A DNA stretch of 64,000 nucleotides from Escherichia phage EI-SP-GF. The stretch lies in sequence record OR992645.1. The stretch is one strand, 5' to 3'. Below the pieces are notes generated by a model. That model ran no database searches. It was not told where the DNA came from and saw only the letters and a list, made by a program, of their open reading frames with translations. How positions within the stretch are numbered: the first letter of the stretch is position 1; each line of letters starts with the position of its first letter. The position numbers and the translations under genes are program-made. Of the stretch, positions 23,981 to 30,257 are shown in pieces.

Positions 23981-24361
23981 TCAGTAGATGTTTTGTTTAA
24001 TCTCTATTCCAAACTTCTTGAATGAGTCAGCAGCAAGCATAAATTTACGAGCTGCCGATGGATTAGAAGTATGCACGAAAATAATCACGTTGTCAATAAG
24101 TGGTGGCTTTCCGAATACAAGTTTCTCCTCTAGCGCAGAGAAGCAGTCGTACCCTTCAAGCACTTCACCTAGATCATTGTCAAAATGCCACTCAGAAACG
24201 CGCCTGTAGAGCTTTCTATTATCGTTAATAAAATCCATGAACTCAGAAGAGTTCTTCAGCCAAAGAGCATCTTGGATTCCGTAATTTGACGGATCTCTCA
24301 AGTCATCTAGCCACACAATCAACTTCTTCATTGCATATAGTCCTCGTTGTGAAAATAGCAA
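23981..24361 (-). CDS. hypothetical protein with receiver-like motif pattern (126 aa)
   Basis: KLIVWLDD...HFDNDLG...VHTSNP pattern reminiscent of a REC-like fold; inference only. Confidence 0.3.
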   Translation of the reverse strand: MLFSQRGLYAMKKLIVWLDDLRDPSNYGIQDALWLKNSSEFMDFINDNRKLYRRVSEWHFDNDLGEVLEGYDCFSALEEKLVFGKPPLIDNVIIFVHTSNPSAARKFMLAADSFKKFGIEIKQNIY

Positions 24362-25263
24362 TCAAGTATCTCACGGCGTTCCTGCTCCAGGAGGCAGTTC
24401 CACACATCTTCTGTGTAATTGCTACGAATGAAGTTTACCATGCCATAAAACTCTTCGTCAATACGTTTAAAGATATCATCATCCCAAATCTTCCAAGCTT
24501 TACCCCTCATTACGGCCTTCCGTGCCAAATAGTATGGAGACTTGATCTTCAGCTGCAGGTCATAAGGGTAGTAAGGCTTACGGATCATATACCCTTCGCC
24601 CCTTGTTTCTGCAGCCAATTCTTTTGCATAGCTGAACGGGATTTCACGCACAGTGTGAGGACGTTTTGCACCAAGGTATTTGGCAATCCCATCTAAAGCT
24701 GCTTCTGGTAGCATTATTCCAGAATCATTATATCTGCAACCTATCAAATATGCGCCATGGTCTTCTTGAACAATATGCGGATCTGAAGGGTGACAAATTT
24801 CAAACATGAATGTCATGTTTTCATTGCCCATAACCTTCTTGATAAGATCTAAATTACCACATTGCTCTTGGATGGTTTCCTTTGCAAGGTTACAATATGG
24901 AGAATCAAGAGACCCGGTTGTTGAGAACAATAGGTCACCTTTATGAGATGATACCACACCAAGGAATCCGTTCTTTTTCTCTACCGCAGTCACAAGCTTA
25001 TTGTCAGGCAGGTTGGTGGAGTTTTCTCCCAAGTTAAACACTTTTGTGAAGGGCCATGCCACAACATTTCCTTCATTACCTACAACAATGCCTCGGCACT
25101 CCAGTAAACGAGGGGACAAATGCCATAAATTGTTGTAAAATACTTTTCTAGCATATTTATAGATCTTTAACCCGAGATCTGGGTAATACCTACTGGTTAC
25201 AAGACCTTTGTCAACTAGGTCGTCTGCATTAAAATACTTCATCATACGTTCCTCATTTGTCAT
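24328..25263 (-). CDS. putative RNA ligase (nucleotidyltransferase)
   Basis: Motif I VEKKNGF (KxNG as in Rnl1/Trl1-type ligases) and motif IV GEGYMIRKP; true start probably ATG at 25242 (GAGGAA RBS). Confidence 0.45.
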   Translation of the reverse strand: MTNEERMMKYFNADDLVDKGLVTSRYYPDLGLKIYKYARKVFYNNLWHLSPRLLECRGIVVGNEGNVVAWPFTKVFNLGENSTNLPDNKLVTAVEKKNGFLGVVSSHKGDLLFSTTGSLDSPYCNLAKETIQEQCGNLDLIKKVMGNENMTFMFEICHPSDPHIVQEDHGAYLIGCRYNDSGIMLPEAALDGIAKYLGAKRPHTVREIPFSYAKELAAETRGEGYMIRKPYYPYDLQLKIKSPYYLARKAVMRGKAWKIWDDDIFKRIDEEFYGMVNFIRSNYTEDVWNCLLEQERREILDCYFHNEDYMQ

Positions 25264-25306
25264 TTTGTCAGTCTATCCTGTCACACAAATAACCTAGTGT
25301 CAACAC

Positions 25307-25335
25307 TTGAAATTAACAAAACAGTTAGATATACT
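25307..25335 (+). promoter_or_regulatory. sigma70-like promoter (TTGAAA-N17-TATACT) for kinase/phosphoesterase operon
   Basis: Hexamers at 25307-25312 and 25330-25335 with 17-nt spacer; back to back with a minus-strand TTGACA at 25298-25303. Confidence 0.45.
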
Positions 25336-25363
25336 ATCGTTGAAATTAAAACGGGGGGTCACT

Positions 25364-25774
25364 ATGTCTAAAATGCTATATATCGTGCGTGGTCTACCAG
25401 GGTCTGGCAAATCAACACTGGCAAATGCGCTATCTTTAGAGGGTCTGTATCCACATTTTGAGAACGACATGTTCTGGTATGACGATGACGGCAATTACAA
25501 CTGGGATGCAAGTAAAGTAACACTCGCAGCGAAATGGTGCAAAGATAACGTAGAAGATATGATGCGTATGGGATACGACCGTATCGTGGTAAGTAATACG
25601 TTTACAAAAGAAAAACATGTGCAGGAATATGTTGACATGGCAATCAGTCATGGGTATAGTTATACCGTGATCGTGGTTGAAAACCGCCACGGTAATAAAA
25701 GCATTCATGATGTTCCAGACAAGGTTGTGGATCGTATGGAACGCCAGCTTAAAAACTGCATTAAACTTAAATGA
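25364..25774 (+). CDS. P-loop polynucleotide-kinase-like protein
   Basis: Walker A VRGLPGSGKSTLA at N-terminus; start moved to ATG 25364 (GGGGGG RBS). Confidence 0.6.
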   Translation: MSKMLYIVRGLPGSGKSTLANALSLEGLYPHFENDMFWYDDDGNYNWDASKVTLAAKWCKDNVEDMMRMGYDRIVVSNTFTKEKHVQEYVDMAISHGYSYTVIVVENRHGNKSIHDVPDKVVDRMERQLKNCIKLK

Positions 25775-25781
25775 GGAATGT

Positions 25782-26336
25782 ATGAAATACTTTGTAACAA
25801 GCGACACACACTTTCTCCACCAGCGGGTCATGGAGTTTGATTCATGTCAAAAACACAGATCTCAGTATGATCACAATCTTGACAGTATGAATGCGGGAAT
25901 CATCGCCGAATGGAACTCTGTTGTGTCACCTGCAGACACTGTGTTCCACTTGGGAGATATTGCGTGCACTAATGATAAGAATATCAACAACTTACTTCCA
26001 GATATTCTAAATATGTTGAACGGACATATTATTCTTGTTCGTGGCAACCATGACACAAGGACGACTGTCAGAATTATGAAAGAGTTCGGTCATGAGGTTG
26101 TAGATTATTACGAGCTTCGCCACAACAAGAATTTGATCTGTATGAGCCATTACCAATTTGCAAAGTGGAACAGAAATCCTCACGGATCAGTCCAACTGTT
26201 CGGTCATGCTCACGGAACCACACAACAGTTGTTTGGCAGGCAGCTTGATGTCGGTTGGGATGTGTGGGGGAGACTCTTACCATTAGAAGAGGCATACCGT
26301 ATTGCAATGAGTTTTGCTATTGACAGCGGGGAGTAA
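25782..26336 (+). CDS. calcineurin-like metallophosphoesterase
   Basis: Motifs SDTHF, LGDIA, VRGNHD; start moved to ATG 25782 (GAGGAA RBS) directly after kinase stop. Confidence 0.65.
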   Translation: MKYFVTSDTHFLHQRVMEFDSCQKHRSQYDHNLDSMNAGIIAEWNSVVSPADTVFHLGDIACTNDKNINNLLPDILNMLNGHIILVRGNHDTRTTVRIMKEFGHEVVDYYELRHNKNLICMSHYQFAKWNRNPHGSVQLFGHAHGTTQQLFGRQLDVGWDVWGRLLPLEEAYRIAMSFAIDSGE

Positions 26337-29176: not shown

Positions 29177-29272
29177 AATATTTTCTTGACAAACTTTGCC
29201 TAACAGTGTAATATTATAAACATGGTCTCCCACCTTTTCTGGCGGCTCAGGTGTAAAAGAAAGCCACCCAGT

Positions 29273-29344
29273 GCCCTGTTAGCTTAGTGGATAAAGCAGC
29301 GGCCTTCTAAGCCGTTGACACTGGTTCGAGTCCAGTACGGGGTG
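29273..29344 (+). tRNA. tRNA-Arg(TCT)
   Basis: Hand-folded cloverleaf: acceptor GCCCTGT/ACGGGGT, D-stem GCTT/AAGC, anticodon loop CTTCTAA, T-loop TTCGAGT, encoded CCA. Confidence 0.8.
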
Positions 29345-29477
29345 CCAAGTTCTTTTTAATGTAGCTTACTTTAGCAGAGTAAATCTTCGGCAAGTGGCGG
29401 TAACCACTTTACCGATACCTCATAGTTAGTGGTTAGAACACTAGCTATTTTAAAAAGAATTTAAATATTAGTATTTA

Positions 29478-29562
29478 GGTGAGTTAATTCCGTAGGGGTA
29501 GCGGGGCAGACTGTAAATCTGTTATCATTGCGATTCGGGTGGTTCGACTCCATCACTCACCA
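29478..29562 (+). tRNA. tRNA-Tyr(GTA), type II with long variable arm
   Basis: Acceptor GGTGAGT/ACTCACC, anticodon loop CTGTAAA, T-loop TTCGACT, CCA encoded. Confidence 0.75.
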
Positions 29563-29680
29563 CCAAATTTATATTTTTAAATGCATAAATCATACAGATA
29601 ATGGCATTGATATTTATCGTCGTTTATACTAGTCACTAACTGCTCGAAAATCAGTGTCATTATCAGTATTGTTTATAAAA

Positions 29681-29768
29681 GAGGGTAGGGAGCAATGGTG
29701 CTCAAGCGGTCTTGAAAACCGTCCCGTTGAGGATGACTCGATGATGGTTCGATTCCATTATCCTCTGC
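29681..29768 (+). tRNA. tRNA-Ser(TGA), type II
   Basis: Acceptor AGAGGGT/ATCCTCT, anticodon loop CTTGAAA, long variable arm, T-loop TTCGATT, CCA encoded. Confidence 0.7.
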
Positions 29769-29868
29769 CATATTGTTGACCTTGTAATTAAGCGAAAGCC
29801 GGAAGCAGAACCGGATTATCAAATGTTACAGTCGTCATCGCCGACTAGCAACATGGTCAACATACTGA

Positions 29869-29965
29869 GCTAGGTAAGCCCTTTGGCAAGGGCGAGGATT
29901 TTTAATCCTGAAAATAGACGAGGTAGTCGTTGAATACATAGATGGTTCGATTCCATCACCTAGCA
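29869..29965 (+). pseudogene. aberrant tRNA-like element (possible degenerate tRNA-Lys(TTT)-like)
   Basis: Canonical acceptor GCTAGGT/ACCTAGC, D-arm GCCC/GGGC and T-arm GATGG-TTCGATT-CCATC, but 97 nt long with about 30 nt between anticodon-like hairpin and T-arm. Confidence 0.35.
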
Positions 29966-29971
29966 CCTTTT

Positions 29972-30044
29972 GCTGATGTAGCACAATTGGCAGTGCAATT
30001 GATTTGTAATCAATAGGTTGCAGGTTCAAGTCCTGCCATCAGCA
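29972..30044 (+). tRNA. tRNA-Thr(TGT)
   Basis: Complete 73-nt cloverleaf: acceptor GCTGATG/CATCAGC, anticodon stem ATTGA/TCAAT with loop TTTGTAA, T-loop TTCAAGT, CCA encoded. Confidence 0.85.
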
Positions 30045-30048
30045 CCAT

Positions 30049-30120
30049 GGCCCTGTAGCTGGAAGGTTCAAGCAAGCGACTCATAATCGCCAGACGGTGG
30101 TTCAATTCCACCCAGGGCCA
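30049..30120 (+). tRNA. tRNA-Met(CAT) (elongator or Ile2-type)
   Basis: Acceptor GGCCCTG/CAGGGCC, anticodon loop CTCATAA, T-arm GGTGG-TTCAATT-CCACC; starts 1 nt after tRNA-Thr CCA. Confidence 0.8.
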
Positions 30121-30134
30121 CCAAATAATAAATA

Positions 30135-30208
30135 CTCCGCGTAGCTCAGCTTGGTAGAGCGCCTGATTTGGGATCAGGAGGTCGAGTGTTCGAATCACTC
30201 CGTGGAGA
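30135..30208 (+). tRNA. tRNA-Pro(TGG)
   Basis: Acceptor CTCCGCG/CGTGGAG (C1-G72 as in bacterial tRNA-Pro), D-arm AGCTCAGCTTGGTAGAGC, anticodon loop TTTGGGA, T-loop TTCGAAT. Confidence 0.85.
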
Positions 30209-30257
30209 CCACCTTTAGTTATACTTTAAATATATACACACAAAAGGAACCTTTAAA

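Follow-up and report, generated by a model that had tools for sequence, protein, structure and literature searches.

Introduction

Among the rules of tRNA architecture are the pairing of U8 with A14 and an anticodon arm with a stem that is 'consistently 5 bp' and a loop of 7 nt (PMC7609411). Class II tRNAs (Ser, Leu, Tyr) have 7/5 helices, an elbow and an extra variable hairpin, which is attached through linkers of 1-2 nt. tRNA-Sec (RF01852) is marked by a 13-bp acceptor plus T domain (8/5 in bacteria), by UCA and by G73, and allo-tRNAs (Mukai et al. 2017, as reviewed in PMC7609411) carry diverse anticodons on one scaffold. Some tRNA-shaped RNAs have non-decoding roles, for example tRNA-Other of B. 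cereus, a non-translating tRNA-like regulator (PMC3399842).

Phages encode small RNAs among their tRNA genes as well. The rnaC and rnaD genes of T4 (species 1 and 2), annotated as 'small, stable RNA', measure 139 and 119 nt and have no complete cloverleaf, although a T arm of tRNA type (CCGGGTTCGAATCCCGG) lies close to the 3' end of rnaC. Cleavage of tRNA has become a prominent topic in anti-phage defence. Host tRNA-cleaving systems and phage tRNAs that counter them have been documented (PMC10264068, PMC11464382, PMC11555353); in one of these cases tRNA-Lys of phage T5 neutralises PARIS (PMC11464382). Other documented cases are T5 tRNA-Tyr against retron-Eco7 and anticodon-loop variants in phage tRNAs.

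Here we analyse a 97-nt element in the tRNA cluster of Escherichia phage EI-SP-GF (OR992645.1), a Vequintavirus (rV5-like coliphage); "the window" denotes the whole 64,000-nt stretch of this genome that was studied. Unlike T4 rnaC and rnaD, the element keeps every tRNA arm. Sequence comparison makes it a member of a conserved and hitherto undescribed family of tRNA-shaped RNAs located among the tRNA genes of rV5-like phages.

Results

The cluster contains six ordinary tRNA genes, all on the same strand as the element and all encoding CCA. It is 100% identical to that of Escherichia phage vB_EcoM_10C2_SA_NWU, and near-identical phages are classified in Vequintavirus. ARAGORN found no other tRNA-Lys gene in the window. 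The surroundings of the element are as follows.

24328-25245, - strand: T4 Rnl1-type RNA ligase (tblastn against annotated Bas59 genes; Pfam RNA_lig_T4_1)
25364-25774, + strand: P-loop kinase, annotated as polynucleotide kinase (tblastn against Bas59; Pfam AAA_33)
25782-26336, + strand: metallophosphoesterase (tblastn against Bas59; Pfam Metallophos)
29186-29214, + strand: sigma-70-type promoter-like site TTGACA-17-TAATAT (consensus scan, 10/12 matches)
29273-29347, + strand: tRNA-Arg(TCT) (ARAGORN, Rfam tRNA model)
29478-29562, + strand: tRNA-Tyr(GTA) (found by Rfam, missed by ARAGORN, annotated in relatives)
29680-29770, + strand: tRNA-Ser(TGA) (ARAGORN, Rfam tRNA model)
29972-30211, + strand: tRNA-Thr(TGT), starting at 29972, tRNA-Met/Ile2(CAT) and tRNA-Pro(TGG) (ARAGORN, Rfam)

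The strong promoter-like site, given its position 59 nt before tRNA-Arg, is the probable operon promoter of the cluster. Taken together, the ligase, kinase and phosphoesterase look like a tRNA healing-and-sealing set; they lie 3.5-5.5 kb upstream of the element and form its context, not part of the RNA. Hena1 has a matching set and, in addition, a gene labelled tRNA nucleotidyltransferase. BLAST detected no copy of the element in many phage groups that have the ligase (phAPEC8-like, Pseudomonas, Vibrio), and the ligase is therefore not specifically linked to it.

The element itself has the following parts.

29869-29965, + strand: tRNA-shaped RNA gene, 97 nt to the discriminator (ARAGORN tRNA-???; Rfam tRNA 37.5 bits; family covariance model R1 99.2 bits)
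29869-29875, + strand: 5' strand of the acceptor stem, GCTAGGT, 7 pairs with ACCTAGC at 29958-29964
29876-29877, + strand: positions 8-9, AA (A8, A9), placed by the family alignments
29878-29893, + strand: D arm GCCC-TTTGGCAA-GGGC, 4 pairs, followed by G at 29894
29895-29909, + strand: anticodon-like hairpin AGGAT-TTTTA-ATCCT, 15 nt, stem covarying
29910-29916, + strand: 5' linker GAAAATA, apparently single-stranded (family consensus GAAAA plus 1-2 nt)
29917-29931, + strand: variable-region hairpin GACGA-GGTAG-TCGTT, predicted in all members
29932-29940, + strand: 3' linker G-AATACATA, abutting the T stem, the same in all 31 family sequences
29941-29957, + strand: T arm GATGG-TTCGATT-CCATC, 5 pairs, canonical T loop
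29958-29965, + strand: the acceptor stem's 3' strand, ACCTAGC, pairing with 29869-29875, and discriminator A (29965)
29966-29971, + strand: spacer CCTTTT, 6 nt, to tRNA-Thr

The initial annotation had described a canonical acceptor stem, D-arm and T-arm, a perfect AGGAT-TTTTA-ATCCT hairpin, about 30 nt between this hairpin and the T-arm, and a distance of 6 nt to tRNA-Thr. The sequence is as described, with the interval before the T arm measuring 31 nt (29910-29940). The second G of the D loop is G19. RNAfold and RNAalifold also draw the D arm as a 6-bp stem with a 4-nt TGGC loop (GCCCUU-UGGC-AAGGGC); the two extra U-A pairs are invariant, so covariation is uninformative on them. The central hairpin can be read as 5 bp with a 5-nt loop or as 4 bp with a 7-nt loop, UUUUUAA, and folds on its own into 6 bp with a UUU triloop. 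CC at 29966-29967 is followed by TTTT, and since the terminal A is not encoded, the CCA end of the window copy is incomplete; in most genera CCA is encoded. The only ORFs overlapping the element are short and unconserved, with no notable coding potential.

ARAGORN reports the element as tRNA-??? with a four-base 'atcc' anticodon. The underlying fold (stem ATTTT/AAAAT, 8-nt loop) was rejected, because its pairing is absent in other genera, where an AGGAT/ATCCT-type stem covaries instead. With permissive filters, the Rfam tRNA model (RF00005) matches 29869-29965 with 37.5 bits (E 9.8e-6, gathering score 29), in an alignment that deletes one anticodon-stem position, leaves a non-standard pair and inserts 26 nt in the variable region. 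This is exactly the UUU anticodon with a mismatched stem that had been proposed from the sequence, although UUU (Lys) turned out to be confined to Vequintavirus, orthologues having UAU, UCC, GCC or UCA. The minimum free energy fold of the window copy is a five-helix cloverleaf of -34.8 kcal/mol, compared with -20.8 +/- 3.3 for shuffled sequences (z -4.2), and none of 200 shuffles folded as well; the five-helix form is predicted for every family member. A standard cloverleaf that might have been overlooked was sought with ARAGORN, Rfam and folding, and none was found.

Comparison with orthologous loci revealed a conserved family with the same architecture in other genera. Homologues are present in the tRNA clusters of Vequintavirus, TH18-like phages, Seunavirus, Mydovirus and Henunavirus and in viral and metagenomic contigs, and well over 100 public phage genomes carry the gene. 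Identity is 97-100% across Vequintavirus and approximately 70-93% in the other four groups. The family alignment comprises 31 distinct sequences. With a covariance model, R1, members score 93-115 bits and ordinary tRNAs stay at or below 23.4 bits; the model finds one copy per genome or locus (one per genome in five lineages). Loose pattern scans of viral contigs returned about 240 mostly chance loci, among which R1 confirmed only locus L113. Pattern matches in a Bdellovibrionales MAG and in locus L281 have no acceptor stem and are false, and the odd loop (CATCA) and tail (TCAA) of GE_vB_MG, both CC-to-C contractions in an 'UNVERIFIED' record, are probable sequencing errors.

Among the copies run against Rfam, that of Vequintavirus is the only one to reach a gathering score, with permissive filters; at gathering settings the Rfam tRNA model leaves the copies in seven other loci unreported, and ARAGORN makes no calls on copies outside Vequintavirus. 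For the copies of PVP-SE1 and Hena1 the best Rfam family is tRNA-Sec (27 and 39 bits, gathering score 47), ahead of the tRNA model. GenBank labels range over tRNA-Lys (in BASEL and other records), tRNA-OTHER, tRNA-TERM/sup(tca), tRNA-???, hypothetical protein and no label at all, some being marked pseudo. One family stands behind all of them, and the labels 'tRNA-Lys' and 'suppressor' are unsafe. Our search of the literature found no published description of the element; the six tRNAs listed for rV5 in its genome paper do not include it.

Across the 31 sequences the predicted pairs are kept in 99.4% of cells, and two-sided compensatory changes occur in 12 of the 22. Covariation scores 0.488, versus 0.181 +/- 0.013 in shuffles, and slid controls pair in 30-45% of cells. 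An alignment not fitted to the structure recovered the same helices, with nine compensated pairs. All seven acceptor pairs are kept in 100% of the 31 sequences, four of them with two-sided changes (pair 3:70 is U-A, C-G or A-U), as are all five T-arm pairs (pair 50-64 is A50-U64 in the window and G50-U64 in most relatives), while three of the four D-arm pairs have two-sided changes. The anticodon-like stem occurs as AGGAU/AUCCU, AGGUC/GACCU and GGGC/GCCC. The tertiary pair 19:56 (alignment columns 18 and 90) is G:C in 22 sequences, U:A in nine and broken in none, the switch from G19:C56 to U19:A56 probably being a single evolutionary event. The elbow pairing of G18-G19 with the T loop (G19:C56) is thus found across the family, and the element has a 12-bp 7/5 acceptor/T domain with a TTCRANY T loop. 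Its conservation in other phage genera, accompanied by compensatory changes, places the element far beyond chance.

Departures from tRNA rules include the anticodon-like arm, which measures 15-16 nt compared with 17 in tRNA and does not combine 5 bp, a 7-nt loop and U33. U, A or C occupies position 33, and in Seunavirus and Mydovirus most copies have loops of 6 or 8 nt with A or C there. The triplet varies by lineage (UUU, UAU, UCC, GCC, UCA) and no isotype is constant: UUU is limited to the Vequintavirus lineage, and UCA to Henunavirus-like members plus one Seunavirus copy (NINP13076). As the orthologues carry other triplets, 'tRNA-Lys' is not a property of the family. In Seunavirus and Mydovirus the loop is the site that differs between otherwise identical or near-identical copies, and the copies L268, L272 and L260 differ from one another at loop positions 33-34 only. 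A37 is constant across the family, and divergent members of the UCA type (Henunavirus, L274, L280, L113) retain an interior AUCAA. The U8-A14 pair is replaced throughout by A8 and U14. Vequintavirus copies have A as discriminator, those of TH18-like phages C or U, and all others U; G does not occur.

UCC and GCC are Gly anticodons, UUU is a Lys anticodon, and UCA is that of the classic Gly-derived opal suppressor. UUU with A73, as in this phage, is the Lys identity pair (E. coli LysRS). In other genera UCC or GCC is accompanied by G1-C72, C2-G71 and U73, which match the identity elements of E. coli GlyRS. TH18-like copies combine UAU with C73 or U73, which is not Ile identity, and phages with a UCC-type element also have a canonical tRNA-Gly(UCC). 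Opal suppression by UCA-type members was considered and set aside: in Hena1, whose element is of this type, TGA ends 42% of long ORFs, and an efficient UCA suppressor is therefore unlikely.

In the variable region, a hairpin whose kind depends on the lineage sits between two nearly invariant A-rich linkers of 7-10 nt. No other unpaired segments of the family are as strongly conserved as these linkers. Five of six columns of the 5' linker are invariant in the 31 sequences (L113 reads GTAAAAC). The 3' linker is present in every BLAST-found copy (L113 reads ACATACATA), and its invariance is partly ascertainment, since the pattern scans required it. The hairpin shows A-U to G-C changes inside the Vequintavirus/TH18 clade and is a different one in other lineages, with at least three unrelated types and no family-wide sequence conservation. 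A conserved type-2 hairpin loop, GAAYUAACAGUA, on a covarying stem, is shared by Henunavirus, part of Mydovirus, L274/L284 and L113.

Three further roles for these segments were examined and rejected. A repeated promoter or DNA motif does not fit the linkers, AATACATAG occurring exactly once in the 64-kb window and near-matches being below expectation. Linker-linker pairing (AUGUG or AUGUA with UACAU) is possible only in the Henunavirus/L274 group, not in the window. Kissing of the central loop with the variable-hairpin loop (UCCA/UGGA in PVP-SE1, GCCA/UGGC in L021) is absent in other hairpin types.

The element resembles class II tRNAs in its 7/5 helices, elbow, extra variable hairpin and tRNA-operon location, and in most genera it has the NCCA-type 3' end of canonical tRNAs. 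It differs from them in an anticodon arm that is 1-2 nt short, in the lack of a fixed U33 or triplet, in A8/U14 for U8/A14 and in linkers of 7-10 nt instead of 1-2 nt. With tRNA-Sec and allo-tRNAs it shares a long variable arm and, in some members, UCA, and possibly also a D stem of 6 bp with a loop of 4 nt; the variety of triplets on one scaffold recalls allo-tRNAs in particular. However, its 12-bp domain is 7/5, not 8/5, 9/4, 8/4 or 9/3, G73 is lacking and the anticodon stem is shorter. When alignment to the 13-bp tRNA-Sec domain was forced in Infernal, non-standard terminal pairs appeared. The combination of UCA, G73 and a tRNA-Sec score of at least 47 bits was not seen in the window copy, which has UUU and A73, nor in those of PVP-SE1 and Hena1, which score 27 and 39 bits.

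Homology to T4 rnaC and rnaD was rejected: R1 had no match in T4 70908-71171, its only hit in that region of T4 being tRNA-Thr (23.4 bits), and the folds differ. B. cereus tRNA-Other and the tRNA-like domain of YrlA/Y-RNA (RF02553) are tRNA-shaped RNAs with non-decoding roles whose sequences are unrelated to the element. A search with the RF02553 model gave no match at the element, and YrlA ends in a Ro-binding stem, not in a 7-bp acceptor stem. Neither an ARAGORN tmRNA, nor the G3:U70 of tRNA-Ala-like ends, nor a notable tag ORF was found. Like the anti-defence phage tRNAs, the element is a gene of a phage tRNA cluster; it has, in a coliphage, a Lys-type loop, its anticodon-like loop changes fast, and it shares its genome with a tRNA repair set. 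Those tRNAs are canonical decoders, whereas the element has a non-canonical arm and a large insert.

Discussion

We tentatively favour the view that the element is a tRNA mimic, processed like a tRNA and exempt from normal decoding, which goes beyond the statement that it folds like a tRNA. It would be co-transcribed with the cluster tRNAs, excised by RNase P and 3' trimming, given a complete CCA end by the CCA-adding enzyme, as for its neighbours, and would take the tRNA L shape. It would be no ordinary decoder and therefore not a tRNA-Lys gene in the usual sense. The tRNA body may supply processing, stability and access to tRNA-binding partners, and the specific function may reside in the fast-changing loop and the conserved linkers. 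The most likely setting would be a phage-host conflict over tRNAs, in which the element would serve to distract or soak up a nuclease or enzyme that targets tRNA, as a decoy or sponge. Two considerations count against a mimic: the loop is not free to drift (A37 and AUCAA are kept) and its triplets are real anticodons, and known phage counters to tRNA nucleases are canonical tRNAs, not mimics.

A more specific version strikes us as rather unlikely. It holds that Vequintavirinae keep an L-shaped tRNA mimic whose loop is re-tuned per host lineage and whose hairpin is exchanged like a module, serving as a decoy or inhibitor of tRNA-targeting immunity or as a sensor or substrate of phage tRNA repair. 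The loop would then be Lys-like in coliphages, Gly-like in phages of Salmonella, Klebsiella and Cronobacter, and UCA in Erwinia phages. Because the loop changes fast in genomes with a ligase, kinase and phosphoesterase, the element is a concrete and testable candidate in phage-host conflict, and Vequintavirinae isolates, including the BASEL-collection phages used in the comparison, are available for genetics. If this more specific version holds, the element would be the first RNA-based counter-defence by tRNA mimicry, as opposed to a replacement tRNA. For tRNA biology, the family presents an L-shaped body that would tolerate at once a shortened anticodon arm, swapped positions 8 and 14, and a five-way junction with long conserved linkers, which is of interest for what processing and quality control let pass and for designing orthogonal tRNA scaffolds.

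The main rival, a working if unusual decoder, is somewhat unlikely. The Vequintavirus copy would be a tRNA-Lys(UUU), charged by LysRS via U34-U36 and A73, that replaces host tRNA-Lys depleted by anticodon nucleases, for example PrrC or PARIS; in other lineages it would be a Gly tRNA (UCC/GCC, U73) or an opal suppressor (UCA), and the odd arm and large variable region would make it a poor tRNase substrate. Opening the closing U-A pair of the central hairpin gives the loop U32 U33 U34 U35 U36 A37 A38, together with discriminator A. The tRNA-Lys labels of GenBank records, including BASEL, the lack of another tRNA-Lys gene in the window, the CCA encoded in most genera and the Rnl1/kinase repair set all fit such a decoder, and so does the association of UCC/GCC with U73, G1-C72 and C2-G71, which match GlyRS identity elements. 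A precedent is the neutralisation of PARIS by T5 tRNA-Lys (PMC11464382). However, the arm has 15-16 nt and not the 17 of a 5-bp stem with a 7-nt loop (PMC7609411), the isolated hairpin of the window prefers 6 bp with a triloop, U33 gives way to A or C in most lineages, and Seunavirus and Mydovirus loops are mostly of 6 or 8 nt. A Gly decoder would duplicate the normal tRNA-Gly(UCC) of UCC-type phages, a suppressor is at odds with Hena1, which does not avoid TGA stops, and the TH18-like combination of UAU with C73/U73 lacks Ile identity. The exchange of U8/A14 for A8/U14 also speaks against decoding.

We regard as improbable a regulatory RNA in a tRNA scaffold, in which the body would serve excision and stability, and the linkers GAAAAUA and AAUACAUA together with lineage-specific hairpin loops such as GAACUAACAGUA would pair with mRNA or bind a protein. 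The strong conservation of the unpaired linkers, and of the type-2 loop on a covarying stem, suggests activity in these segments. The complement of AAUACAUAG, CUAUGUAUU, contains AUG, and B. cereus tRNA-Other offers a precedent (PMC3399842). Yet the window shows no excess of that complement (at one mismatch or none, both strands together give 10 matches, versus 16.9 expected), the hairpins fall into at least three unrelated types without family-wide sequence conservation, and the kept elbow pair, CCA end and anticodon-like arm would be left unexplained.

A divergent selenocysteine-type or allo-tRNA-type tRNA is highly improbable. The long D stem, the long variable arm and the UCA of some members recall such tRNAs: tRNA-Sec is the best Rfam family for PVP-SE1 (27 bits) and Hena1 (39), the 6-bp/4-nt D arm aligns, as does CAUCAAA with CUUCAAA, and allo-tRNAs have diverse anticodons and in some cases five-stem junctions (PMC7609411). 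These scores stay below the gathering score of 47, the acceptor/T domain is 7/5 (12 bp) and not 8/5 or 9/4, nor the 8/4 or 9/3 of allo-tRNAs (PMC7609411), G does not occur as discriminator, the anticodon stem is reduced in length, not extended, and linkers of 7-10 nt are unlike those of class II tRNAs.

Least probable of all is a tRNA pseudogene undergoing decay, or a neutral relic left by an insertion into a tRNA gene, to which inconsistent or absent gene-finder calls, the incomplete CCA of the Vequintavirus lineage and the pseudo/OTHER labels might point, but which is countered by 99.4% of pairs kept across genera with no sign of relaxed constraint, compensation in every helix and in the tertiary pair, one copy per genome in five lineages, nearly invariant linkers, and a combination of about 70% identity with covariation that argues against recent horizontal copies. 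The initial annotation had offered 'decayed tRNA' as one possibility; this is contradicted by an element that is conserved, at 97-100% identity in Vequintavirus and about 70% elsewhere with the same architecture, and whose helices are maintained by compensatory substitutions. Its other suggestions, a tRNA with an insertion or a tRNA-derived RNA, agree with the enlarged variable region and the shortened anticodon-like arm.

The element and its fold

The 97-nt tRNA-shaped gene lies inside the tRNA cluster and shares its strand with tRNA-Arg, Tyr, Ser, Thr, Met/Ile2 and Pro; the window sequence at 29869-29965 agrees exactly with the layout described in the initial annotation. The stretch of about 30 nt noted ahead of the T arm measures 31 nt, and the 6-nt gap to tRNA-Thr is the spacer CCTTTT.

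Parts of the element, read from the sequence (window coordinates, + strand)
29869-29875 / 29958-29964, acceptor stem GCTAGGT / ACCTAGC
29876-29877, positions 8-9, AA
29878-29893, D arm GCCC-TTTGGCAA-GGGC
29894, position 26, G
29895-29909, central hairpin AGGAT-TTTTA-ATCCT
29910-29940, variable region, 31 nt
29941-29957, T arm GATGG-TTCGATT-CCATC
29965, discriminator A
29966-29971, spacer CCTTTT
29972, start of tRNA-Thr

None of the programs run on the element returned a standard cloverleaf overlooked in the first reading. The ARAGORN call is tRNA-???, with 'atcc' as a four-base anticodon; the Rfam tRNA model scores 37.5 bits (gathering score 29), a fit that needs one anticodon-stem position deleted and 26 nt inserted in the variable region; and folding the element alone gives a five-helix cloverleaf of -34.8 kcal/mol (z -4.2 versus shuffles). 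According to ARAGORN and Rfam runs on the window, it is neither a tmRNA nor YrlA. An intrinsic-terminator-like site is scored inside the element of this lineage (29878-29904), made up of the D-arm hairpin and the GAGGATTTTT after it; the T run of this site is missing from other genera.

A conserved family in Vequintavirinae

BLAST searches with the element alone identified full-length matches of similar length and ~70% identity in other Vequintavirinae genera: Seunavirus (PVP-SE1, GAP31, Salmonella and Cronobacter phages), Mydovirus (KB57, Mydo, Ro1, Klebsiella phages) and Henunavirus (Hena1, pEa_SNUABM_55), as well as a 93%-identical copy in a TH18-like unclassified Escherichia phage. Viral and metagenomic contigs, scanned with exact patterns, yielded further copies, bringing the family to 31 distinct sequences; the same approach applied to one genome per bacterial species gave no true copies. 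This census of BLAST hits and exact patterns bounds the measured taxonomic range and the measured conservation of the 3' linker.

In the structural alignment of all 31 sequences, which was fitted to the structure, standard pairs occupy 99.4% of 682 pair cells and two-sided changes occur at 12 of the 22 pairs; many sequences are closely related, so that cell counts overstate independent events. The covariation score is 0.488 versus 0.181 +/- 0.013 for shuffles, and sliding the partners by 1-3 columns lowers pairing to 30-45%. A plain MAFFT alignment analyzed with RNAalifold reproduced the four helices and showed compensation at 9 pairs. In nine sequences D-loop G19 and T-loop C56 are jointly replaced by U and A, without exception, probably through a single event; this is the change expected from an RNA forming the tRNA elbow. 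With the covariance model built for the family, its members score 93-115 bits and ordinary tRNAs no more than 23.4 bits; the model detects one copy per genome or locus. Comparison of orthologous loci thus replaces the decayed tRNA considered initially with a conserved, structured, tRNA-shaped gene, whose body and linkers are under purifying selection.

Departures from tRNA

The anticodon-like arm of the family is 15-16 nt long versus 17 in tRNA. The UUU (Lys) reading initially suggested is confined to Vequintavirus and gives way to UAU, UCC, GCC or UCA in other lineages.

Anticodon-like arms by lineage
Vequintavirus: AGGA-U-UUUUA-A-UCCU; triplet UUU
TH18-like: loop interior UUAUA; triplet UAU
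Seunavirus, Mydovirus: AGGU-C-CAUCCA-G-ACCU, with variants CCUCCA, CUUCCA, CAGCCA, CCGCCA and CCUCAA; triplet UCC, GCC or UCA
Henunavirus-like: GGGC-[C/U/A]AUCAA[A/G]-GCCC; triplet UCA

Position 33 varies among U, A and C, and position 37 is always A. Three Mydovirus-type loci (L268, L272, L260) are identical over 109 nt save loop positions 33-34, and the NINP13076 and KE22 copies differ mainly in the loop; the loop is therefore the fastest-changing part in Seunavirus and Mydovirus, though under some constraint. A at position 8 and U at position 14 reverse the U8:A14 arrangement found almost universally. The D arm also permits a 6-bp drawing with a 4-nt loop, like tRNA-Sec; the two extra pairs are invariant and so give no covariation signal.

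In the variable region a hairpin stands between a 5' linker (GAAAA followed by 1-2 nt) and a 3' linker, AAUACAUA, which adjoins the T stem. Both linkers are nearly invariant, which is partly built in for the 3' linker, as the pattern scans required it; all copies found by BLAST have AAUACAUA. The sole copy obtained with a different pattern (locus L113) has linkers GUAAAAC and ACAUACAUA. The hairpin belongs to unrelated types across lineages.

Hairpin types of the variable region
Vequintavirus: short GACGA-GGUAG-UCGUU, with A-U to G-C compensation in TH18-like phages
Seunavirus: 6-7 bp, G+C-rich
Henunavirus, part of Mydovirus, loci L274/L284 and L113: 3-4-bp stem, conserved loop GAAYUAACAGUA
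Locus L280: 7 bp

The stem below the GAAYUAACAGUA loop covaries (GCC/GGC, GUC/GAC, AGCG/CGCU, UUCC/GGAA). Different hairpin types within one genus suggest that the hairpin has been exchanged between lineages. A U-CCA 3' end is encoded outside the Vequintavirus/TH18 clade; inside it the end is A-CCU, A-CAU, C-ACA or U-ACA, and CCA is present in the genes of all six ordinary tRNAs in the window.

Genomic context

Features near the element (window coordinates)
24328-26336, Rnl1-type RNA ligase (T4 Rnl1-type, minus strand), P-loop kinase annotated as polynucleotide kinase, and metallophosphoesterase
29186-29214, strong promoter-like site TTGACA-17-TAATAT upstream of the element

In other genera the element follows a tRNA-Ile, tRNA-Thr or tRNA-Leu gene and begins 1-3 nt past the CCA of that gene, a spacing that would fit excision by tRNA-processing enzymes. 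The protein-coding trio, 3.5-5.5 kb upstream, looks like a tRNA healing-and-sealing set, and Erwinia phage Hena1 has this trio too, as well as a gene with the annotation tRNA nucleotidyltransferase. The RNA ligase was rejected as a specific partner of the element, being also common in phages without a detected copy. Vequintavirus has another translation-related accessory gene, whose product is annotated as ribosome hibernation factor (48010-48327 in L289, the genome of phage EduardKellenberger, Bas59).

Directly after tRNA-Ser(TGA) and immediately 5' of the element lies a conserved stretch of ~60-85 nt (29786-29868), 83-88% identical to unannotated DNA of phage lambda (44866-44952, between orf-64 and S) and of P7/D6. 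The P7 copy also follows an unannotated tRNA-Ser(TGA) (691-777 of P7 locus L292). The stretch contains two hairpins, CCGG-N8-CCGG and AGTCG-TCATCGC-CGACT; lambda and P7 have GGCG...CGCC in the latter, a compensatory change. It gave no Rfam match, and other genera lack it beside the element; it could be either a mobile tRNA-Ser-plus-tail module or an uncharacterised structured RNA.

ARAGORN misses tRNA-Tyr(GTA) at 29478-29562, which scores 39 bits with the Rfam tRNA model and is annotated in relatives. The spacer between tRNA-Arg and tRNA-Tyr (29348-29477) is 130 nt here versus 4 nt in EduardKellenberger and rV5_ev146, and the alignments of many further relatives with the cluster break into two pieces at 88-89% coverage, which fits the same ~127-nt indel; we therefore consider it an insertion common to about a dozen phages. 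The CAT-anticodon tRNA at 30049-30123 is tRNA-Met according to ARAGORN and the rV5 paper, while BASEL records have it as tRNA-Ile (ATA); a lysidine-dependent tRNA-Ile2 is possible.

Possible role

The anticodon-like arm breaks the rules for decoding. It is too short, U33 is missing in most lineages, and loops have 6 or 8 nt; UCC-type phages also carry a canonical tRNA-Gly(UCC), and UCA-type phage Hena1 shows no TGA avoidance (42% of long-ORF stops versus 23% in the window). These features favour a tRNA mimic, possibly a decoy or sponge in the phage-host conflict over tRNAs, a proposal that we hold tentatively, giving it as a whole somewhat less than an even chance. Such an RNA would be produced and processed as tRNAs are, and tRNA-binding factors would recognise it by its acceptor end and elbow, yet it would not serve as a normal adaptor. 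What points to this conflict is a loop that is lineage-specific and changes fast, in genomes equipped with tRNA repair genes as well; the relevant systems in it are PrrC, PARIS, retron-Eco7 and Old (PMC10264068, PMC11464382, PMC11555353, PMC12445682).

The main rival, that the element does decode, strikes us as less likely, though several features speak for it: in this phage, opening of the loop can give U-U-UUU-A-A, A is the discriminator, and further tRNA-Lys genes are lacking; in other lineages UCC or GCC goes with U73, G1-C72 and C2-G71. The two combinations agree with the identity rules for Lys and Gly, respectively. A tRNA-scaffolded regulatory RNA, with the insert as its active part, is a third option of distinctly lower probability. 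Class II tRNAs, tRNA-Sec and allo-tRNAs have single features in common with the element and their defining ones fail (7/5 helices, no G73, short anticodon arm, long linkers), and a relative of tRNA-Sec or allo-tRNAs is poorly supported and very improbable; a pseudogene, set against the conserved pairing, is slightly more so.

The closest analogues in concept are T4 species 1 and 2 RNAs, stable RNAs of a phage tRNA cluster, one with a T arm; they have no homology to the element. We place it among the non-canonical tRNA-like RNAs of phages.

Annotation in related phages

The tRNA cluster is 100% identical to that of Escherichia phage vB_EcoM_10C2_SA_NWU and 97-99% identical to those of many rV5-like phages (those checked are Vequintavirus). 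In their records the element is labelled tRNA-Lys, tRNA-OTHER, tRNA-TERM, tRNA-???(atcc), tRNA-Pseudo or not at all; the rV5 genome paper lists six tRNAs without mentioning it (PMC3606486), and we found no description of it in the literature. Copies outside Vequintavirus receive no call from ARAGORN or from Rfam at gathering settings; with permissive Rfam settings, tRNA-Sec is the top family for the PVP-SE1 and Hena1 copies (27 and 39 bits, threshold 47). The family is already visible to annotation pipelines, yet it was never recognised as one family.

Small 'hypothetical protein' CDSs annotated over the element (1499-1700 in L263, Proteus phage Mydo, and in loci L005, L267 and L260) are most likely spurious calls on an RNA gene. 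About 18-19 'Campylobacter phage' records (MG0656xx; C12, C14, A147 and others) are 97-100% identical to rV5-like coliphages here and look mislabelled or contaminated. The record of Salmonella phage GE_vB_MG (L004, flagged UNVERIFIED) differs from the PVP-SE1 copy by two CC-to-C contractions, in the loop and in CCA, and has a second place matching the element, probably reflecting homopolymer errors and an assembly duplication.
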